Assembly (NCBI GenBank): GCA_947176295.1 | Contig: CAMWQB010000001.1 | Location: 4,760 to 68,759, forward strand | Direction: 5' to 3' | Length of the DNA stretch: 64,000 nucleotides | Source of the DNA: an uncultured Porphyromonadaceae bacterium | Lineage (GTDB): Bacteria; Bacteroidota; Bacteroidia; Bacteroidales; Muribaculaceae | Shown: positions 147 to 28,678 of the stretch, one piece after another | Position numbering within the stretch: the first letter of the stretch is position 1 | How the letters are laid out: every line of letters starts with the position of its first letter | Notes under the pieces: generated by a model | Databases searched by the model: none | What the model was told of the DNA's origin: nothing | Seen by the model: only the letters and a program-made list of their open reading frames with translations | Made by a program: the position numbers and the translations under genes

Positions 147-929
147 TCAGATAAATCTCTCGCCCAGCGACGCCTCGATATAATCGAAAGTCGTCAGGAT
201 CTCTACCTCATCGTTCCGGATAGCGATCGTATGCTCATAGTGCGCCGAAGGCTTGTGGTCACGCGTCATGCACTCCCACCCGTTCCGGGCGATCACTACA
301 TTACGCGAACCCATGTTCACCATAGGCTCTATGCAGATACACATCCCGTTGCGGATCACAGGCCCGATGCCTCGGCGCCCATAGTTCGGAACCTCTGGCT
401 CCTCATGCATGCTCCGCCCGATTCCATGGCCCGTCATCTCGCGCACAAGCGAATAATTCCGCCGCTCGCAATAAGTCTGCACCGCATTCGCGATATCACC
501 GATACGCCCGCCAACTCGACAAGCACGGATTCCCTCATAGAGAGCCTCCTTCGTCGTCCGGCAAAGAGCCATCTTCTCAGGCGAAATCTCGCCCACCGCA
601 AACGTATAGCAGCTGTCGCCCATGAAACCATCCTTCTCGACTACCGTATCAAACCCCACGATGTCCCCGTCACGCAGCTCATACCCCGAAGGGAATCCAT
701 GAACCACCGTATCGTTGACCTCCACGCAGAGCGTCCCCGGAAAACCGTGGTAGCCAAGACACGCAGGCTTGCCTCCATTGTCCAGGATAAACTCCCGCGC
801 AATCTGGTCAATCCGCCGTGTCGACTCCCCCGGACGCACCCACTTGGCAACCTCGCCAAGCACCTGCGACACAAGCGTAGACGCTCCGCGCATACGCTCG
901 ATTTCTTCCGGTGTCTTAAGATATATCAT
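147..929 (-). CDS. map: Type I methionine aminopeptidase
   Basis: VVHG, GHGIG..HEEP, EPM and EHT metal-site motifs; start moved to MIYLKT (ATG at 929); position after secY. Confidence 0.95.
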
Positions 930-1058
930 CTCGTTTCGATCTTGGGTAATGTTTCTATTTCTTTCGTCCGCTGCCCCCGCAGCCCTTTGCAGCCCCACGA
1001 GCGCGGACACCGGCGGCGAGAAGCCCTGTTCAGCCTCTCACCGCCATTTCCTTTTGTG

Positions 1059-2408
1059 TCAATAAGCCGAGCCGGTCGTGCGTCCCTTGATCTTGCCCTC
1101 CTTCATCAGGCCGTCATAGTGGTGCATCATCAGATGCGACTCAACCTGCTGAAGAGTGTCAAGAACAACGCCCACCATAATCAGCAACGATGTGCCGCCG
1201 AAGAACTGAGCGAAATTCTGGCTTATACCAAAGAAACGCGCAAAAGCCGGTAATATTGCTACGATGCCAAGGAAAATCGACCCCGGCAGCGTAATGCGGC
1301 TCATGATGGCATCAAGATACTCCTCCGTCTTCTTGCCGGGCTTTACACCCGGGATAAATCCATTGTTGCGCTTCATGTTCTCAGCCATATCCTTCGGACG
1401 GACCGTGATTGCCGTATAGAAATACGTAAACGCCACAATCAGAATAAAGAAGACAAAATTATACCAGAAGCCGTTGATGTCCGTGAACGCATGGAAGAAA
1501 CCCGTCTCCCCGCCGCGGAAACCGCTGAAGGCCATCGGGATAAACATGATAGCCTGCGCAAAGATGATAGGCATAACACCCGCAGCATTCACCTTCAGAG
1601 GGATATACTGCCGAGCACCACCATACTGGCGGTTCCCGACGATACGCTTCGCATACTGCACAGGCACCTTGCGCGTGCCCTGCACAAGCAGAACAGCTCC
1701 TACCGTTACGGCAAAAAGAAGAACAATCTCGATGATAAACATCACAAGACCGCCCTGAGAGCCCGATGCTCCCGGCAGACGGCTGATGAACTCATACGAA
1801 AGCGCTCCCGGAAGACGGGCTATGATACCCACCAGAATGATGAACGAAATACCATTGCCGATACCACGGTCAGTGATACGCTCGCCAAGCCACATGATGA
1901 ACATCGAGCCCGCGGTCAGGATAATCGTCAGATAAACCGTCGTCCAGAACCCCATATGGAGCCCGAGACCACCGGCCGCCGACGACGCCTGAATCTGAAG
2001 GTTGATAAGGTACGAAGGAGCCTGAAGGAACAGAATCACCACCGTAAGATAACGAGTGTACTGATTCAGCTTCTGTCGGCCGCTCTCGCCCTCACGCTGC
2101 ATCTTCTGGAACGACGGAAGAATCATCCCGCACAGCTGGATCACAATCGAAGCCGTGATGTAAGGCATAATTCCAAGTGCAAAGATCGACGCCTGAGAGA
2201 AAGCGCCGCCCGAGAACATATCCAGCAGCTGCATCAGACCACTCTTGTTCGTAAACGAAGCAAGAGCATCGATCGCCGACGGAGAAATCCCCGGAAGCAC
2301 CACATAGCAGCCCAAGCGATAGATCAGCACCAGCAGAAGCGTGATGCCGATCCTGTCGCGGAGCTCCTTGATCGACCAGATATTTTTTATCGTGTCTGTG
2401 AATCGCAT
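1059..2408 (-). CDS. secY: Preprotein translocase SecY
   Basis: Multi-TM protein with SIFALGIMPYITASI, GIGNGIS and PGVKPG motifs; start moved to MRFTDT (2408). Confidence 0.97.
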   Translation of the reverse strand: MRFTDTIKNIWSIKELRDRIGITLLLVLIYRLGCYVVLPGISPSAIDALASFTNKSGLMQLLDMFSGGAFSQASIFALGIMPYITASIVIQLCGMILPSFQKMQREGESGRQKLNQYTRYLTVVILFLQAPSYLINLQIQASSAAGGLGLHMGFWTTVYLTIILTAGSMFIMWLGERITDRGIGNGISFIILVGIIARLPGALSYEFISRLPGASGSQGGLVMFIIEIVLLFAVTVGAVLLVQGTRKVPVQYAKRIVGNRQYGGARQYIPLKVNAAGVMPIIFAQAIMFIPMAFSGFRGGETGFFHAFTDINGFWYNFVFFILIVAFTYFYTAITVRPKDMAENMKRNNGFIPGVKPGKKTEEYLDAIMSRITLPGSIFLGIVAILPAFARFFGISQNFAQFFGGTSLLIMVGVVLDTLQQVESHLMMHHYDGLMKEGKIKGRTTGSAY

Positions 2409-20048: not shown

Positions 20049-21833
20049 TTACTTCGAGAGCTTCTCCTTGAGGGCAGCCAGCGAGGCGAGGTCGCCCAGC
20101 GTGGTCTTCTCAAGAGGAGTGGTCTGAGCTGCGGGAGCAGCCTCTTCCTGCTTCTTGGCAGGACGCTTGGCAGCCTTGCGCTCAGCAGCCTTCTCCGCAC
20201 GAGCCGGATCCTCGAAGGTGCGGCTGTGGCTTACGATGATGCGCTTGTTGTCCTTGTTGAATTCGATCACCTTGAAGGGGAGCTTCTCATCCACCTTGGC
20301 CGTGGTGCCGTCTTCCTTAACGAGGTGCTTGGGCGTAGCGAAGCCCTCAACACCGTAAGGCAATGCCACTACAGCACCCTTCTCGAGCATCTCGACGATG
20401 GTGCCCTCGTGAACGGAATCCTTCGTAAATACGGTTTCGAATACGTCCCAGGGATTCTCCTCGAGCTGCTTGTGGCCGAGGGAGAGACGACGGTTGTCCT
20501 TGTCGATGTTGAGAACCTCAACTTCGATGTCGGCACCGATCTGAGTGAATTCGCTGGGGTGCTTGATCTTCTTGGTCCACGAGAGGTCGGAGATGTGGAT
20601 AAGACCGTCGACACCTTCTTCGATTTCTACGAATACGCCGAAGTTGGTGAAGTTGCGCACCTTAGCCGTGTGGCGGCTGCCGATAGCATACTTCGTGTCG
20701 ATATCCTCCCAGGGATCCTTCTTGAGCTGCTTGATGCCAAGGCTCATCTTGCGGTCGTTGCGGTCGAGAGTAAGGATCTGAGCCTCAACTTCGTCGCCAA
20801 CCTTCAGGAAGTCCTGAGCACTGCGCAGGTGCTGGCTCCACGACATTTCGCTCACGTGGATGAGACCTTCAACGCCGGGGGCAACTTCGAGGAATGCACC
20901 GTAGTCGGCCATAACCACAACCTTACCCTTCACGCGGTCGCCAACCTTGAGTTCGGGATCCAGAGCCTCCCAGGGATGAGGGAAGAGCTGCTTCAGACCC
21001 AGGGCGATACGCTTCTTCTCGTTGTCGAAATCAAGGATAACGACATTGAGTTTCTGCTCGAGAGCCACAACCTCCGAAGGATGGTTGACGCGGCCCCACG
21101 AGAGGTCGGTGATGTGAATCAGACCGTCGACACCGCCAAGGTCGATGAACACACCATAGGAAGTGATGTTCTTGACGGTGCCTTCGAGCACCTGCCCCTT
21201 TTCGAGGTGTGAGATGATTTCGCGCTTCTGAGCCTCGAGCTCGGCTTCGATCAGCGCCTTGTGCGATACAACGACGTTCTTGAACTCTTCGTTGATTTTC
21301 ACAACCTTGAATTCCATCGTCTTGCCAACGAACACGTCGTAGTCGCGGATGGGCTTAACATCGATCTGCGAGCCGGGGAGGAAAGCCTCGATGCCGAACA
21401 CGTCGACGATCATACCGCCCTTTGTGCGGCACTTGATGTAGCCCTGGATGATGTCGTTGTTCTCGAGGGCAGCATTGATGCGGTCCCAGGAACGGGCGGC
21501 GCGAGCCTTCTTGTGGCTCAGGATCAGCTGGCCCTTCTTGTCTTCCTGGTTCTCGATGAACACTTCCACCTTGTCGCCGACCTTGATGTCGGGATTGTAG
21601 CGGAATTCGCTCATGGGGATGATACCGTCGGACTTGTAATCGATGTTAACAACGGCCTCACGCTTGTTGAGGGCGATGATCGTACCTTCAATTACGTCCT
21701 TATCCTTTACGGAGTTGAGAGAGTCCTCATAAGCCTTGGTGACCTGTTCGCGGCTCTGATCGCTGACGGTTTCACCGTTCTCATAGGCTGCCCAATCGAA
21801 ATCTTCGATCGGAGAATTTTTCAATTCTGTCAT
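20049..21833 (-). CDS. rpsA: 30S ribosomal protein S1
   Basis: Repeated S1 domains (DLGGVDGLIHITDLSW, VEGLIHVSEMSW, DGLIHISDLSW). Confidence 0.97.
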   Translation of the reverse strand: MTELKNSPIEDFDWAAYENGETVSDQSREQVTKAYEDSLNSVKDKDVIEGTIIALNKREAVVNIDYKSDGIIPMSEFRYNPDIKVGDKVEVFIENQEDKKGQLILSHKKARAARSWDRINAALENNDIIQGYIKCRTKGGMIVDVFGIEAFLPGSQIDVKPIRDYDVFVGKTMEFKVVKINEEFKNVVVSHKALIEAELEAQKREIISHLEKGQVLEGTVKNITSYGVFIDLGGVDGLIHITDLSWGRVNHPSEVVALEQKLNVVILDFDNEKKRIALGLKQLFPHPWEALDPELKVGDRVKGKVVVMADYGAFLEVAPGVEGLIHVSEMSWSQHLRSAQDFLKVGDEVEAQILTLDRNDRKMSLGIKQLKKDPWEDIDTKYAIGSRHTAKVRNFTNFGVFVEIEEGVDGLIHISDLSWTKKIKHPSEFTQIGADIEVEVLNIDKDNRRLSLGHKQLEENPWDVFETVFTKDSVHEGTIVEMLEKGAVVALPYGVEGFATPKHLVKEDGTTAKVDEKLPFKVIEFNKDNKRIIVSHSRTFEDPARAEKAAERKAAKRPAKKQEEAAPAAQTTPLEKTTLGDLASLAALKEKLSK

Positions 21834-21937: not shown

Positions 21938-22025
21938 CATTTACGTAAAAATATACACTCCGCAGATTTTGCTGCATATCAAGGCCGCCTCAACAAGCAA
22001 GTTTCCGCTCAACCCGGCGGATTTT

Positions 22026-22057
22026 TTTGCCCATCTCAAAAATTATCACTACCTTAG
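22026..22057 (+). promoter_or_regulatory. Putative promoter of the Rhs array (variant -7 element)
   Basis: TTTG (22026-22029), 20 nt spacer, TACCTTAG (22050-22057); one mismatch to TAnnTTTG. Confidence 0.5.
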
Positions 22058-22078
22058 AGCGCCCAAATCTCCTCGACC

Positions 22079-23158
22079 ATGAAAAAACGCTCCCTCTTCA
22101 CCTCCAACAGAAGCTCCCAACGCAGCTACGGGCGTATTGTCAACTCGGCCTACTCATCCTATCAGCAAAACTATGTCGCCGGACGTGTCTTCAAAGGCTC
22201 TACTTTGGAATATTCTTACTTCCCCGGCGGATACTTCGATGCCGAGGGCAACGTCCATTACACCATCAACGACTATCAGGGCTCCGTCGTGATGGTTGTC
22301 GATTCCGTGGGCAAAGTCGAGCAACACAATAGCTACTATCCCTATGGCGAGTTGCACCGAAATTCTTCGGGGCAGCGGAGGATGTATATCGGCAAGGAGC
22401 TCGTCGACGAAACGGCCTCCTACGACTATGGCCCGCGAGACTTCCGCTCGGCCGGCCTCTATTGGGAAGCCCCCGACATCAAAGCCGGCGACTATCCCAA
22501 CACCGCCCCATACGTCATGTGCGCCGCAAATCCCATCCGCAATTCCGACCCGACAGGGATGAAAATATGGAAAATGAACGAAACCGGCCAAATATTAGGA
22601 ACCGAGGAAAATGCTGATATTGACGGTGATTATATTTATATTTTTAATAATGACGGTGAAGTTATTGCAAAGTCAAGTAAGCATGAAACCGGAACAATAC
22701 AATTGGATGAATCGGGAACAGTGATCGATCCTAATACAAATGAACCACTCAAGGATAATGAAGGAAAGAAGGTTACATATACATCTCTGAAAGTAAAGGG
22801 CGACGAATCTGGAGAACAGCTCTTCAAATTTCTTGCATCAGAGTTAACTGCAAAAGGATCATATATAGAATTTTCATTAATACAAGTAGGGTTTGAGGGA
22901 ACGGGCTCTAATTTCATAACAACAAGCCATCAGAAAGCCTCAGAAGCCGGAGGTGGACAATTATATAGGAATAAATTAGTAAAGGGATATGTCATTCGTT
23001 CAGATTCTCACTCTCATCCTGATAATAACACCGCAAGTAAGACAGATAAAGACACAAAGGAGCAATTTATTAAAAATCAAAAAACAAAAAATACCCAAAA
23101 ATGCATTCCCAAATTTAGGGTTCTAAACTCTTTAACCAATGATTTTTCCGAATATTAA
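22079..23158 (+). CDS. N-terminally short Rhs-core protein with a C-terminal JAB/MPN-like toxin domain
   Basis: Rhs core (NDYQGSV..EQHNSYYPYGE, YIGKE, YDYGPR, PY..CAANPI..DPTG); tip has a conserved E (YIEFS) plus HSHP..AS..D JAB metal motif. Confidence 0.8.
   Translation: MKKRSLFTSNRSSQRSYGRIVNSAYSSYQQNYVAGRVFKGSTLEYSYFPGGYFDAEGNVHYTINDYQGSVVMVVDSVGKVEQHNSYYPYGELHRNSSGQRRMYIGKELVDETASYDYGPRDFRSAGLYWEAPDIKAGDYPNTAPYVMCAANPIRNSDPTGMKIWKMNETGQILGTEENADIDGDYIYIFNNDGEVIAKSSKHETGTIQLDESGTVIDPNTNEPLKDNEGKKVTYTSLKVKGDESGEQLFKFLASELTAKGSYIEFSLIQVGFEGTGSNFITTSHQKASEAGGGQLYRNKLVKGYVIRSDSHSHPDNNTASKTDKDTKEQFIKNQKTKNTQKCIPKFRVLNSLTNDFSEY
22368..22575 (+). repeat. Rhs-core repeat, copy 1
   Basis: 22368-22551 is identical to 24306-24489; 22368-22575 differs from 25840-26047 at 9 of 208 nt (manual alignment). 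Confidence 0.95.
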
Positions 23159-23759
23159 ATATATGCCTATGAGGTTAATTTTAATTGTTTTTTGCCTTTT
23201 GGCTGAGTGCTTTACCTCCGTTTTTGCACTCGAGCCCAGTCCTGTCATAGCCGAGAAAGTGGAGGTGCGCGACAAGGCCCTTTTCGAAGCGATAGACAGC
23301 CTGATACAGACAACCGACCACAAAATGACAATCAAACCGGAATATCGGGATAAAGTACGCGACTCGTTCAACACCCTTACACTATCCCGAGATGATAGTA
23401 AATATCAAGAATCGACTGAGAATACAGCCGACGATGAATTCTGGCTCTTTGTCTATGCCGGAGAATCGTCCAATCACGATCATATCGGCGATTATTATTT
23501 CACGACACCACACTACAGGTTCGTATCCTATCATTATGATGCCAAACTATTTAAGAAAAAGCTGGGCACTAAGAAATGTATAGGCTATAATTATTTATGG
23601 TTTGATGACATCGGGCCGTCATGGTATTTTAAGATTAAGGACAGTCGGATTCTGGAGGCATATTATCATTACGACGAACTCGATGATTTTAAAGGTGTTG
23701 TTTACGACATCCTGAATAAAAAAATTGTTTCGGAAGGGTACGGAGAAATCTTTAATTAA
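23139..23759 (+). CDS. Putative immunity protein P1 (signal peptide)
   Basis: Overlaps the toxin 3' end; AT-rich; hydrophobic N-terminus (true start may be 23163 or 23169); shares W-x-F-x-I and YDILNK motifs with P3/P4. Confidence 0.6.
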   Translation: MIFPNIKYMPMRLILIVFCLLAECFTSVFALEPSPVIAEKVEVRDKALFEAIDSLIQTTDHKMTIKPEYRDKVRDSFNTLTLSRDDSKYQESTENTADDEFWLFVYAGESSNHDHIGDYYFTTPHYRFVSYHYDAKLFKKKLGTKKCIGYNYLWFDDIGPSWYFKIKDSRILEAYYHYDELDDFKGVVYDILNKKIVSEGYGEIFN

Positions 23760-23770
23760 AAAATTTAGCT

Positions 23771-24247
23771 ATGAAAAAATTATTATTGATCGCAATTCTG
23801 GCGGCAGGCTCAATCACAGCTGTTCCCTCGAAAAACCTTTCGCACGAGTGGAAACTCGTCAAAGACGAGACATTTTTCAACTATATCGATTCCATGCTCG
23901 ACCTGAACGACAGCACCCCCTTTATCGATATGGATCCGTGTGAAAGGCAGATGGTTCAGAGCGCAAAAAGATATTATAGAATCACTATCGATGACGGACT
24001 CCAAAAAGACTCCATTACAATAAATGACGGAAAACCTCACAGAATTCACATCGCACAATTTCGGTGGCTCATGCCTGATGCCAAATCGACCATAAAGCAC
24101 AAGGATCGCGTTTACTTTTTTACAGTGGATCACGCAGACGTCTTCAGGTCTTTCCATCCGAGCATCTCAAAAACTTCTTCAAAGAGCTGCCCCTGCCTTC
24201 CCGGGCAAGAATGGCAATTTGAATACACCGCTCAGGCCCGACCATGA
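23771..24247 (+). CDS. Putative immunity protein P2 (signal peptide; possibly C-terminally truncated paralog of P1)
   Basis: MKKLLLIAILAAGSITA signal; KDETFFNYIDSMLDLND resembles RDKALFEAIDSLIQTTD of P1; ends just after WQF. Confidence 0.55.
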   Translation: MKKLLLIAILAAGSITAVPSKNLSHEWKLVKDETFFNYIDSMLDLNDSTPFIDMDPCERQMVQSAKRYYRITIDDGLQKDSITINDGKPHRIHIAQFRWLMPDAKSTIKHKDRVYFFTVDHADVFRSFHPSISKTSSKSCPCLPGQEWQFEYTAQARP

Positions 24248-24259
24248 TAGCCCCCGCCC

Positions 24260-25138
24260 ATGAACACCCGCCACCGCACTCCTTCACCCCTACCCAGCTC
24301 CCGAGCGGGGCAGCGGAGGATGTATATCGGCAAGGAGCTCGTCGACGAAACGGCCTCCTACGACTATGGCCCGCGAGACTTCCGCTCGGCCGGCCTCTAT
24401 TGGGAAGCCCCCGACATCAAAGCCGGCGACTATCCCAACACCGCCCCATACGTCATGTGCGCCGCAAATCCCATCCGCAATTCCGACCCTACGGGGATGG
24501 ACATATCTGTTAAAAATTCACAAGGAGAACTTTTGTTCGTTTTTCCCTATAAAGAAGACTATACCATTGACCTTCCGGTAGATATTCCTTCAGATCCAGC
24601 CAAAATTGGAATTGGCATCGAATATGCTATAACGGGTAGCACATCAGGTGGAACAAAAATGGAAGGATCGGGAATTGCAGGCGTAGTTGTTTTTCTTGGC
24701 GGCAAAGATGCAGGATATGTTTATTCTTACGCTGGTGGAGAAATTGGTGGTGGTATAGAAGGTTCTGTAGGAGTAGGCATAAGCGTAAATAAATCGATTT
24801 TCGTAACGTATCAATCTAAAGGAGATAAAACCGATCATAATCAATTTTCGGGAAAATATGTTTCTGTCGGTGGTTCTTTTAAAGCTATCTTTGGGAAGTC
24901 CAGCCTTTCTGTGTCTAAAGGTCTACAAGAAAAGGGAACTGATGCTGTATGGACAACAGTTGCTCTATCGGAGGGCTGCGAAGCATTCCTTGGGCTAAAA
25001 TCTCCAATTTCACCTTCCATAAGCATCTGCCGGGGTAAAACAGCATTCCTCCCTGGTCAAGATGTTGGCAAACCAAAAAATTTCGCACAAAAAACTTATA
25101 GCTGGGGAAAACTTATTCAACTATGTCTTCGTAAATAA
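24260..25138 (+). CDS. Orphan Rhs module 2: short core plus a Gly-rich toxin tip of unknown family
   Basis: GQRRMYIGKE...DPTG core identical to module 1, followed by an unrelated AT-rich C-terminus. Confidence 0.75.
   Translation: MNTRHRTPSPLPSSRAGQRRMYIGKELVDETASYDYGPRDFRSAGLYWEAPDIKAGDYPNTAPYVMCAANPIRNSDPTGMDISVKNSQGELLFVFPYKEDYTIDLPVDIPSDPAKIGIGIEYAITGSTSGGTKMEGSGIAGVVVFLGGKDAGYVYSYAGGEIGGGIEGSVGVGISVNKSIFVTYQSKGDKTDHNQFSGKYVSVGGSFKAIFGKSSLSVSKGLQEKGTDAVWTTVALSEGCEAFLGLKSPISPSISICRGKTAFLPGQDVGKPKNFAQKTYSWGKLIQLCLRK
24306..24489 (+). repeat. Rhs-core repeat, copy 2
   Basis: 184 bp identical to 22368-22551. Confidence 0.95.
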
Positions 25139-25149
25139 CCGAATTTATT

Positions 25150-25716
25150 ATGGGCAAACTCTTCAAACTCTATCCTCATAATTCACCTGAGCTCAAACTC
25201 ACACGTAAACAAATGATTATATATCGCATAATTCGTTTTGTTATGGTGGTGATTTTTATAATTGGATCTTTTTTTATGATGACCCACGACATGCGAGTTA
25301 ACGATGAAAAATATAGTCTCTATAAATCACAATCTCAATGGCGCATGCTGGGGCAGATGAAGTCGTTTTCGGGGCCTCTGTATGGAGCGCGAGGGAACAC
25401 TCCGACGCAGGATCTATATCTAATTGAAATTGATGTCGATACAATCGAGTTTTTTCGCAATGATCTTCCGGAGGACAGCCCTTATTACGGTGTATATAAC
25501 AAAAACACCAAGAAGGCTTACATAACTACAACTCTATATAATTCAGAGACCAACGACACATACAAACAATCCGATCCCAAACCATATCTTTATGCAGACA
25601 CAAGAAAATCTTTTGCCCTTATTGGCTCCAACGGATTAAATAACGGAATATATATAAATATGAAACCTGCGCTTGAAGAAATGGCCAAAGACACCGCCAA
25701 CTTCATAAAATTCTGA
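25150..25716 (+). CDS. Putative membrane-anchored immunity protein for module 2
   Basis: Starts 11 nt after the toxin stop; one TM helix (IIRFVMVVIFIIGSFFMM); AT-rich. Confidence 0.6.
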   Translation: MGKLFKLYPHNSPELKLTRKQMIIYRIIRFVMVVIFIIGSFFMMTHDMRVNDEKYSLYKSQSQWRMLGQMKSFSGPLYGARGNTPTQDLYLIEIDVDTIEFFRNDLPEDSPYYGVYNKNTKKAYITTTLYNSETNDTYKQSDPKPYLYADTRKSFALIGSNGLNNGIYINMKPALEEMAKDTANFIKF

Positions 25717-25734
25717 CCGCAATCCTCTCCCCAT

Positions 25735-25766
25735 TTTGCACCTTTCCCGAAAAATCACTATATTGC
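25735..25766 (+). promoter_or_regulatory. Possible internal promoter before Rhs module 3
   Basis: TTTG, 20 nt spacer, TATATTGC; shares an ATCACTA segment with the module 1 promoter; weak -7 match. Confidence 0.35.
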
Positions 25767-25790
25767 ACTCGGAATGCCCTACCTTATGCC

Positions 25791-26054
25791 ATGAAGACCA
25801 ATCGATGCAACACAACTCACTTCTGCCACCGTAATCCGGCGGGGCAGCGGAGGATGTATATCGGCAAGGAGCTCGTCGACGAGACGGCCTCCTACGACTA
25901 TGGTCCGCGAGACTTCCGCTCAGCCGGCCTCTATTGGGAAGCCCCCGACATGAAAGCCGGTGTCTATCCCAACACCAACCCATACGTCATGTGCGCCGCA
26001 AATCCCATCCGCAATTCCGACCCCACAGGGATGAAAATATGGAAAATAGAATGA
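25791..26054 (+). pseudogene. Orphan Rhs module 3 with the toxin tip deleted (DPTG-MKIWKIE-stop)
   Basis: Core repeat, then the same first five tip codons as module 1, then a stop overlapping the next ATG (ATGA). Confidence 0.75.
25840..26047 (+). repeat. Rhs-core repeat, copy 3
   Basis: 199/208 nt identical to 22368-22575. Confidence 0.93.
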
Positions 26055-26869
26055 AGACATTATTTAAGTTTATCCGCTGCAAGGCTTGCTTATGCGCTTG
26101 CCTGCTCGTTAGCGGCTTGGTTTACGGCTCTCCCCAATATAGAGTGGAACAGTCAATTGTGCATGAGGGGGAGGGATATCCGGATGGAAAGCTTTTTTCC
26201 CCTTTTTCAGTCCCCACGAAAATACAGGACGGTGAAAATGCGGGTGGAAACGACATCGTGAAATATCTCGACAAGGACATTCTCCGAGATCTACTCCTCG
26301 CGAATAAAAATGAATATAAGGGGAGTTATTTTCTAACTTCGTACGTAGCAACCAAGCCAAACAGGATCCTTGCGGAAATGATGGAAACCGTGCAGTCTAC
26401 TGATTTAGGGAAGCTGTTCAGACCTGATTGTTATATAGACAACTATCTACTGCTCACCATCTACCCGTATCCGGTCAAAATCATATCGACATTATTTGAT
26501 CCAGGTCAATACAACATCGACTTGAAATCGCCGGTTGACCTGATTTCAGAGGGCGAATATGAGGTATATCTCACCTACTGGCCGTGGCCGCATTGGAAGC
26601 CGGATTATGCGTTTGTGTATGATAATCTTTTGGTCTATACCGAGCAATGGATCAATGATGTGTTCACAGAAGAAACAGGATGCGTTACGGAACTACACCC
26701 ACATAAGCACGATATCTTTGACCGGCGGGCAGTGCGCTGGAAGTTCACAATCCTTAATGGGGAAATTGTCGGGAAATCAGTAATGTCGGAAGGCTTCGAC
26801 TACCGATACGCTGTCGTTTACGATTACAATACAAAGCAATTAAAACGCATAGACGTAAATTATGAATAA
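26051..26869 (+). CDS. Putative immunity protein P3 (signal peptide)
   Basis: Start moved to MKTLFKF (26051); clear paralog of P4 (YAFVYD..QWI..AVRWKFTI..YD..K..RID). Confidence 0.65.
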   Translation: MKTLFKFIRCKACLCACLLVSGLVYGSPQYRVEQSIVHEGEGYPDGKLFSPFSVPTKIQDGENAGGNDIVKYLDKDILRDLLLANKNEYKGSYFLTSYVATKPNRILAEMMETVQSTDLGKLFRPDCYIDNYLLLTIYPYPVKIISTLFDPGQYNIDLKSPVDLISEGEYEVYLTYWPWPHWKPDYAFVYDNLLVYTEQWINDVFTEETGCVTELHPHKHDIFDRRAVRWKFTILNGEIVGKSVMSEGFDYRYAVVYDYNTKQLKRIDVNYE

Positions 26870-27593
26870 GACACTTTTTCACAATTCCGGATTACGGCTA
26901 TATTTTCTGAAACTGACGGCATTCATATTTATTCTGGCATCCTTGTCGGTTGAGATTTCTGCACAAAAATACAGCAACGACGGATACCGACATTCGTTCT
27001 TCGTGTCGAAATATGAATGGGAATCGACAGTGGAACTCTTCCCCGATGAATTCTGCGGATACACTACGAGGCTCAAGTTTGTACATGCTCCGGAAAATAA
27101 CACTCTTTCGAAAATGCTTGACCTGATCGACAACACCGATATATCCACAGTTTCAGATGATACGGCCCACCCATCATTTTTCTATGAAATATTCGTTTAC
27201 GACAAGCCTGTCGTCATGCTATACCCGGCCATAAGTCCTATTCTCGTGGAACAACCGACGGACACCGTCGGACCTCTTGACAAAGGCTTCAAGGAAGTGT
27301 ATATAGAAGTTCAGCCATCGATGGACATAGATGCGAAATATAAATTCGTATACGACGACAAGCTTATGTTTTCCCGCCAGTGGATCGACGGGCTGTTCGG
27401 CAAAGAGATTACCGCTCAGACCCTCATCAGCCAGCCTAAGCTGCTGCCGCATGCTGTTCTATGGAAATTCACTCTAATCGATGGGACAATCAAGCAGTGC
27501 GAAGTATTAGTCGAAGACATGAGCAGGCCCGCTATCTGCATATATGACGTCCTGAACAAATCCATACGCAAAATCGACATGCCCCGACGCTGA
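26862..27593 (+). CDS. Putative immunity protein P4 (signal peptide)
   Basis: Overlaps the P3 stop; YKFVYD..QWI..AVLWKFTL..YDVLNK..KID. Confidence 0.65.
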   Translation: MNKTLFHNSGLRLYFLKLTAFIFILASLSVEISAQKYSNDGYRHSFFVSKYEWESTVELFPDEFCGYTTRLKFVHAPENNTLSKMLDLIDNTDISTVSDDTAHPSFFYEIFVYDKPVVMLYPAISPILVEQPTDTVGPLDKGFKEVYIEVQPSMDIDAKYKFVYDDKLMFSRQWIDGLFGKEITAQTLISQPKLLPHAVLWKFTLIDGTIKQCEVLVEDMSRPAICIYDVLNKSIRKIDMPRR

Positions 27594-27628
27594 CGACCCA
27601 GCCTTAACAAATATTGGGGAACATGGTC

Positions 27629-28678
27629 TTAGTTCTCACTTTCTTCGGGCGCCGGGCGAGATGTCCGGGGCTTGATAAGCTCGTCCTGAGCTGTGAATTT
27701 CGGGAAATATTTTCTGAACAGCGGAATGGAGACCCAACTCAGGAGCAAGGCAAGGACAAAAATCTCCACCGCACTCATCGAGTAGCCGAAACACCTCCTG
27801 CCGAGCTTGGGCACATACACGATATACATGGCGTGCAGCCCAAGGACTATCACCGAATAGCGCCCGAAATACGACACCACCGGCAGCCACCTCACGGCCT
27901 TGCAAACAAGAAGCAGACCGACAACCATCAGCACGGATATAACGTATATTTCAAGTATGTTGCCGTAATGAAGATTAGTCTTGAACTCGATGAATGGAGT
28001 GCCGTAATAAACACAATAGCCCAGGGCGGCGGCCATCCCCGTGAGGCCCGCGACGAGATAAAGGCCGTCGCGACGGGTATGATACAGCAGCGGCAGCTTC
28101 CTCATCAATATTCCAATAAAAAAGAAAGGCATAGCATTGAACCCGGTGCCGAAAAACAAGGGCAGATACACATGGTTATAGCTCATGACAGCTCCGGCAA
28201 CCCCGAATACCACTACGGCCACGGCCTTTCCAATCAAGCTTTTGAAGTAGTTGTTTATCGTGAAATATAGCACGTTCACCCAAAAGAGGCCGGCAAGGAA
28301 CCAAACCGGATAGTTGACGATATGCGGCTCGACAAAGGGCATCAGGAACACGTTCCACAGACTTTCCGACCCCGTCAGCACCACAGGAATAAAACCCAGG
28401 AACACGAAGAAACACAAGGGCACCACGAGCCTGTTTATCTTCCTCAGCAGAAACCGGGCGAAGCCTCCGTAATCCTTGAAAAACAATCCCGCCAGCACAA
28501 AATACAGCGGCATTCTCAGAGCCCTCAGCGACGGCACTTCGGTCATGACATCGGAATGAAAAAAGACGATCAGCAGTATGCACACGCCCTTTGCCAGATC
28601 AATGAACTCGATTCGGCCGGAGTCGTCGGCGGAATTCCGCGACCTCACGAAATTATCCTTCAAAAACTCAAGTATCAT
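27629..28678 (-). CDS. Acyltransferase family 3 (OafA-like O-acyltransferase)
   Basis: RIEFIDLAKG..ILLIVFFH, RMPLYFVLAG and WFL motifs; about 10 TM segments. Confidence 0.85.
   Translation of the reverse strand: MILEFLKDNFVRSRNSADDSGRIEFIDLAKGVCILLIVFFHSDVMTEVPSLRALRMPLYFVLAGLFFKDYGGFARFLLRKINRLVVPLCFFVFLGFIPVVLTGSESLWNVFLMPFVEPHIVNYPVWFLAGLFWVNVLYFTINNYFKSLIGKAVAVVVFGVAGAVMSYNHVYLPLFFGTGFNAMPFFFIGILMRKLPLLYHTRRDGLYLVAGLTGMAAALGYCVYYGTPFIEFKTNLHYGNILEIYVISVLMVVGLLLVCKAVRWLPVVSYFGRYSVIVLGLHAMYIVYVPKLGRRCFGYSMSAVEIFVLALLLSWVSIPLFRKYFPKFTAQDELIKPRTSRPAPEESEN

Follow-up and report, generated by a model that had tools for sequence, protein, structure and literature searches.

A rare exported protein family, probably immunity proteins against Rhs-borne Toxin-JAB1 tips, in a low-G+C orphan island of a Muribaculaceae genome

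Orphan Rhs/CdiA tip-immunity arrays and acquired interbacterial defence islands are known from Bacteroidales: truncated toxin cassettes have a near-identical core repeat in common, immunity genes persist though no functional toxin goes with them, and the DNA is low in G+C and looks mobile. Here we describe a low-G+C orphan Rhs tip/immunity island at positions 22079-27593 of a stretch of 64,000 nucleotides (nt), henceforth the window, from an uncultured Porphyromonadaceae bacterium (GTDB family Muribaculaceae; assembly GCA_947176295.1, contig CAMWQB010000001.1, positions 4,760 to 68,759 of the forward strand). The G+C content of positions 22000-28000 is 43-46 %, and that of the rest of the window 55-60 %. 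We call it an orphan cassette island because full-length Rhs is absent from the window. The subject of this paper is the four exported proteins that it encodes, P1 to P4. On sequence comparison P1, P3 and P4 are one rare family of 185-270 amino acids (aa) that is unnamed in databases. Its members are probably exported immunity proteins against Rhs-delivered Toxin-JAB1 tips, with P2 as a conserved partner of P1. The island resembles the orphan arrays in its truncated cassettes, shared core repeat, toxin-less immunity genes and low G+C. It is unlike them in that its retained putative immunity genes (I2, a membrane-protein gene, excepted) are of one family and directed at one toxin fold, and in that neither a recombinase nor a full-length Rhs gene lies within the window.

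Exported immunity is familiar from the envelope effectors of the type VI secretion system (Tae/Tai, Tge/Tgi and Tle/Tli), whose immunity proteins are exported or lipid-anchored to the compartment of the toxin. The substrates of the toxins Tae, Tge and Tle, which are amidases, glycosidases or lipases, are known. As putative immunity proteins the P family shares export with Tai, Tgi and Tli, and it has no sequence or fold relation to them. A nearer parallel is Tox-JAB-1, a computationally predicted, Rhs-borne toxin of Bacteroidetes only, whose strict partner is Imm65, an immunity family of exported lipoproteins; as published, Imm65 is of alpha+beta makeup, has a signal peptide with a lipobox and is marked by a conserved YxC motif together with several charged residues (Zhang et al., 2012, PMC3482391). 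Tox-JAB-2 (DUF4329), a sister JAB-fold clade on Rhs proteins, is paired with Imm-NTF2-2 (Zhang et al., 2012, PMC3482391). The Tox-JAB-2 system differs from ours in its NTF2 immunity fold and wider taxonomic range, and no similarity of P1-P4 to the Imm-NTF2-2 system was detected. The P family and its toxins agree with Tox-JAB-1/Imm65 in the Rhs-borne JAB tip, the putative immunity gene immediately downstream, the predicted export signal, the alpha+beta makeup of the P4 model, the phylum and the strictness of the association. The P family, compared with Imm65 by description only, departs from it in that it matches no curated model, shows Y-(C/x)-F where Imm65 has YxC, and carries mostly plain signal peptides.

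The argument rests on the following features of the island.

22079..23158, + strand: M1, orphan Rhs C-terminal fragment with core end, DPTGM junction and tip (Pfam, TIGR03696)
22547-23155, + strand: tip of M1, Toxin-JAB1 (PF15659)
23169..23759, + strand: P1, exported protein directly behind M1 (hhalign, context; M11, at position 23169, is the start in the database gene call, and an alternative start lies at 23139)
23771..24247, + strand: P2, exported protein of 158 aa (hhalign, context)
25791..26054, + strand: M3, disarmed module with Rhs core end and seven tip codons, reading DPTGMKIWKIE and then a stop
26039..26869, + strand: P3, exported family member, orphan immunity candidate (BLASTP, family search; alternative ATG at 26051)
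26862..27593, + strand: P4, exported family member, orphan immunity candidate (BLASTP, family search, structure model)

P3 and P4 are homologous (26 % identity over 191 aa, BLASTP E 2e-17). A profile of the two, run with HMMER against 1.84 billion representative proteins, returned 14 at E <= 1e-3, P3 and P4 included; word-indexed searches gave five P1-like, three P2-like and one P4-like protein. The named records of the family loci are Bacteroidales metagenome-assembled genomes. Compared pairwise with P4, P1 shows a similarity at the C-terminus only that is not significant (BLASTP E 0.036). Profiles reach further. The P3/P4 family (14 members) against the P1 family (five members) gives an hhalign probability of 88 % (P 2.8e-6) for an alignment that covers 83 columns at the C-terminus, and with signal peptides removed the score is 44.5, where 100 column shuffles gave 13.2 +/- 2.6 with a maximum of 24.3. 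A metagenome scan for JAB tips recovered locus L020, in which a divergent P1-like protein stands behind a JAB tip and bridges the two groups (4e-34 with the P1 hidden Markov model, 1e-7 with that of P3/P4). With this protein added, the mature sequences align at 95.9 % (P 5e-9) over 149 columns, which begin at the T/N-D helix and extend as far as the YD..K end. P1 is thus a divergent full-length member of the P3/P4 family. A scan of Joint Genome Institute metagenomes with the P1 alignment found nothing.

An earlier reading of the window from its letters alone (the sequence-only reading) had taken all four open reading frames for one paralogous family. The single family stands for P3 and P4 on the pairwise comparison and for P1 on the profile comparison, and for P2 it is only suggestive (P 8.7e-4; see below). 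Paralogy stands as homology of P3 and P4, and less as local duplication. In the tree the P3/P4 clade is star-like, with the P1 clade as a long-branched sister, and P3 and P4 are not sisters. Because these are deep lineages (about 26 % identity, non-sister in the tree), captured cassettes appear the more likely origin of P3 and P4. The motifs quoted in that reading are all present, namely Y-x-FVYD...QWI...F, AV-x-WKFT...G-x-I and YD...K...ID, along with the four N-terminal helices ending in T/N-D. Across the family the conserved elements are helix-T/N-D, Y-x-F, QW, W-x-F and YD..K, the second being Y-(C/x)-F with a middle cysteine in most members and not in all.

Modelled with AlphaFold2 (AF2) on an alignment of 16 sequences, P4 has a moderately confident alpha+beta structure (pLDDT, the predicted local distance difference test, 77.3; pTM, the predicted template modelling score, 0.69). 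Besides the signal helix and a short N-terminal part, the model shows the T/N-D helix (residues 80-91) and some nine beta-strands. A Foldseek search of the PDB with it gave no fold neighbour (best E 0.21, TM-score about 0.15). All four proteins have a K/R-bearing n-region and a hydrophobic h-region and lack any later transmembrane segment, so that all four are predicted to be exported. The coordinates given for them in the sequence-only reading hold, and all four lie on the + strand. An N-terminal signal is found in 27 of 28 sequences, the sole exception being a truncated gene call. Lipobox-like cysteines occur in the relatives P0021, P0023, P0024 and P0025; that of P3 is marginal, and P1, P2 and P4 have none.

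The family keeps company with one kind of toxin. P1 follows the only intact JAB tip of the window, which matches PF15659 at 1.5e-17 (64.2 bits; Pfam gathering threshold 21) and has an intact E...HxH...D metal site, E108, H155, H157 and D167 being invariant in an alignment of nine tips. P1-P4 follow only the modules with MKIWK-type tips, M1 and M3, as had been noticed from the letters; the remaining module, M2, reads DPTGMDISV and is followed by I2, an unrelated membrane protein. Gene neighbourhood was judged over about 15 independent loci. A P3/P4-type member lies directly after a tip above the Toxin-JAB1 Pfam threshold in eight of them (L001, L004, L005, L012, L015, L016, L017 and L018; the toxin of L001 is a full-length Rhs, 1257 aa or longer). 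In the window, L013 and L020 a JAB tip is followed by P1 and then P2, so that 11 loci in all have a family member right after a PF15659 tip. The start of the member mostly overlaps the toxin stop or is a few bases away from it. In the loci examined, no family member stands directly behind a tip of any other type. Furthermore, tip identity and neighbour identity go together in ten toxin/neighbour pairs (Mantel r 0.86, reached in 0 of 5000 permutations). The M1 tip and P1 thus form a probable cognate pair of toxin and immunity protein.

Members are also kept where the toxin is gone. P3 persists behind the deletion in M3, where DNA identity to M1 ceases right after the MKIWK codons. In L011 the toxin is frameshifted and the member kept; in L019 an IS4-like transposase gene (IS, insertion sequence; 519-1622, minus strand) sits within the 3' end of the JAB toxin gene (3-530), and the member at 1856-2578 is intact. 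L006 has two tandem copies beside an Rhs remnant, L001 has P1 and P2 without a toxin, and L003 has P1 behind an M2/I2 module. Four tandem family genes occur in L008-L010 (L008:129-3236), the fourth of which is frameshifted in L008 but intact in the other two loci; they fall in one tree clade, which indicates local duplication in that array.

Three things lead us to immunity: where the genes lie, how they co-vary with the tip and, most of all, that they are retained once the toxin is lost. Together these are the signature of immunity and not of a secretion accessory. Rhs toxins seldom have exported immunity. A nuclease role has been favoured for toxin JAB domains (Zhang et al., 2012, PMC3482391). 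On these grounds P1-P4 could instead be exported proteins that serve the Rhs system as accessories or cargo, or unrelated surface proteins hitch-hiking in the variable region. We regard this as quite improbable: an accessory factor has no use once its toxin is lost, whereas members are retained behind toxins that are deleted, frameshifted or disrupted by an IS, and in arrays that lack a toxin. Moreover, they occupy the canonical immunity position, overlapping the toxin stop codon or a few bases off, and they co-vary with the tip. The proposal of the sequence-only reading that the family is immunity specific for JAB tips is accordingly upheld for P1, P3 and P4, on profiles, neighbourhood in about 15 independent loci, retention and co-variation, and is suggestive for P2.

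In the immunity reading, a member would consist of a Sec signal peptide (a lipoprotein signal in some relatives), an N-terminal helix running to T/N-D and then an antiparallel beta-sheet. The Toxin-JAB1 tip would be a zinc hydrolase of the JAB/JAMM fold, and the exported protein, lipid-anchored in some members, would bind and block the incoming JAB domain in the periplasm. Since every complete member has an export signal, a periplasmic binder is the simplest model, and periplasmic immunity would in turn place the target of the toxin in the cell envelope. The cognate of the intact M1 tip would be P1. As orphan immunity genes behind a deleted toxin, P3 and P4 would guard against the JAB toxins of competitors, and P2 would probably be an ancient, C-terminally shortened duplicate that supplies a second immunity specificity or acts as a co-factor.

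Several points weigh against this reading. To our knowledge, no experiment has been reported on any family member or any Tox-JAB-1 toxin. The export signals were called by a hydrophobicity scan and not by a dedicated predictor, and plain linkage of adjacent genes could yield part of the Mantel signal. The similarity of P2 to the family is under accepted thresholds (hhalign 23 %; AF2 pLDDT 52.7). Finally, toxin JAB domains have been proposed (Zhang et al., 2012, PMC3482391) to be nucleases, with which periplasmic immunity fits poorly. A bolder and rather doubtful extension turns the last point around: given universal export of the family, Tox-JAB-1 toxins would be envelope (iso)peptidases, acting for example on peptidoglycan or lipoprotein linkage, and not nucleases; the P family would be a new structure of periplasmic JAB/JAMM inhibitor, without a PDB neighbour; and P1 and P2 would work as a two-protein unit.

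How new is the family? The description of Imm65 fits it in toxin partner, phylum, Rhs context, alpha+beta makeup and export signal, and four relatives have the lipobox-like cysteines noted above. The P family may therefore be Imm65 or its sister. If it is Imm65 itself, in divergent copies beyond the reach of curated models, only the extra members would be new, and we hold this to be possible but unlikely. No YxC motif was seen in the family alignment, where the motif is Y-C/x-F, and the window copies have plain signal peptides with no clear lipobox, the cysteine of P3 being marginal. P1-P4 matched nothing in Pfam-A or NCBIfam by hmmscan, and neither they nor 16 P3/P4-type members, run one by one, matched any family in Pfam-A up to E 10; no Imm65 match was found in these searches, the presence of an Imm65 model in the Pfam copy being unconfirmed. 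Precomputed Pfam annotation is empty for all family members, and a profile search of the PDB gave no credible match. The literature gave no other useful mention of Imm65 or PF15659, and the 2012 supplement contains no Imm65 data.

The Toxin-JAB1 tips themselves bear on this question. Exported or lipobox proteins without a Pfam family stand behind four more distant ones:

L022:1026-1997: distant Toxin-JAB1 tip followed by an exported or lipobox protein
L024:3494-4297: distant Toxin-JAB1 tip followed by an exported or lipobox protein
L025:1156-1806: distant Toxin-JAB1 tip followed by an exported or lipobox protein
L026:857-1555: distant Toxin-JAB1 tip followed by an exported or lipobox protein

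By hhalign none of the four proteins shows similarity to the P family. Tox-JAB-1 thus seems to have several exported immunity families, which also speaks against equating ours with Imm65. The partners in L025 and L026 had looked like family members by eye from their motifs; they were ruled out (hhalign scores of 10-13) and reused as negative controls. As exported, JAB-1-specific immunity had already been published as a prediction in 2012, what we describe is a new or newly delimited case of a known type of system: the family itself is new or newly delimited, and the concept is not. The sequence-only reading had called the family unrecognised. This is right for sequence matches in Pfam, NCBIfam and the PDB, and wrong for the idea, which was published as Tox-JAB-1/Imm65 (PMC3482391).

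P2 is a genuine gene on which purifying selection acts (dN/dS, the ratio of nonsynonymous to synonymous substitution rates, is 0.08 between L013 and L001). It stands behind P1 in four of five distinct P1 loci (the window, L001/L002, L013 and L020; it is missing in L003), and a contig of 1574 nt carries homologues of P1 and P2 together. Whether it belongs to the family is a closer call. BLASTP of P2 against P1, P3 and P4 showed nothing significant, nor did a first comparison. With mature sequences, hhalign relates P2 to P1 around the helix region (P 1.2e-4) and to the P3/P4 family in the middle strands (P 3.4e-3), where DSITINDG-HRIHI...AKSTIKHKDRVYFFT is set against DTV-LN-G-K-IYI...AKYCFAYG-RL-FT. 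Against the merged P1+P3/P4 profile the score is 27.9 (P 8.7e-4, probability 23 %), for an alignment that begins at the helix and stays collinear up to the W-x-F strand. This score tops all of 150 column shuffles (11.9 +/- 2.5, maximum 21.4), the reversed sequence (9.8) and 13 unrelated proteins from comparable islands (9.7-15.3). In the AF2 model of P2, which is poor (pLDDT 52.7), the helix and strands are nonetheless collinear with the aligned elements of P4, the last three strands lacking.

We put membership of P2 in the P1/P3/P4 family at somewhat better than even. A little short of even is the other account, that P2 is exported but unrelated to the family, serving as a second immunity protein or as an accessory factor, and that its likeness to P1 amounts to one amphipathic helix. 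That account gains from the low hhalign probabilities with the P3/P4 and merged profiles (9-23 %), the low-confidence model, and the want in P2 of the C-terminal WxF...YD..K half past one strand. It does not readily explain two separate collinear similarities, one to the helix of P1 and the other to the middle strands of P3/P4, nor a score above every shuffle and every control, nor the predicted secondary-structure order shared with P4; tandem duplication, besides, is habitual in the family.

If ever recombined onto a full-length Rhs, M1 and P1 would probably be an active pair, because the M1 tip retains its E...HxH...D metal site. M1-P1, with or without P2, is an intact and compact pair that can be tested directly, and the test would be, as far as we know, the first experiment on a Tox-JAB-1 toxin. 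A probable immunity family that databases do not name is now defined by sequence, with an alignment and with a model of moderate confidence, and it is tied strictly to Toxin-JAB1 tips. The export of every complete member independently backs an envelope target for Tox-JAB-1. For annotation, four hypothetical genes find an explanation, with the island probably storing in the main protection against the JAB toxins of competitors.

The rest of the island and its flanks are made up as follows.

20049-21833, minus strand: rpsA, left flank
24260-25138, + strand: M2, Rhs core and Gly-rich tip without an assigned family (outside the P family, context only)
25150-25716, + strand: I2, membrane partner of M2 (outside the P family)
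27629-28678, minus strand: Acyl_transf_3 gene, right flank

The three + strand Rhs C-terminal modules, M1, M2 and M3, share a near-identical core repeat that ends in NPIRNSDPTGM; at 22370-22560 this repeat measures 190 bp. The TIGR03696 Rhs core was matched in M1 and M2, and the DPTGM junction was found in all three, that of M1 reading DPTGMKIWKMNETG. Neither the tip of M2 nor I2 has a Pfam family, and I2 showed no similarity to the P1/P3/P4 family by BLASTP or hhalign. The M2/I2 pair, in which the Gly-rich tip comes after DPTGMDISVKNSQG, recurs at L003:482-2140, where an orphan homologue of P1 then follows. This homologue (L003:2275-2859) is the closest relative of P1 (23169-23756), with 69 % identity and a dN/dS of about 0.82, which suggests that the orphan copy is under relaxed or diversifying selection. 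For another P1 pair the dN/dS is far lower, at 0.22.

The stop codon of M3 and the ATG of P3 overlap as ATGA (ATG at 26051, end of M3 at 26054), and the shortened M3 reading frame may only couple translation into P3. Another ATG in the same frame, 12 nt before that of P3 (26039-26054 region), is used by the gene caller in L027, where the call begins at 26039. L027, which comes from a second assembly, has the same gene order as the window. The stretch was not found in public sequencing runs, and tblastn gave no plasmid match to the JAB tip. As for the other loci, an uninterrupted version of the L019 toxin is present in L005 and L018, and the contigs of L008-L010 begin about 128 nt upstream of the tandem array, in non-coding DNA. 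A conserved lipoprotein with an LSGC lipobox and no Pfam family is encoded immediately before the P1/P2 block in L001 (5398-6012) and immediately before the M1-like module in L013 (3798-4532), and may be another orphan immunity gene.

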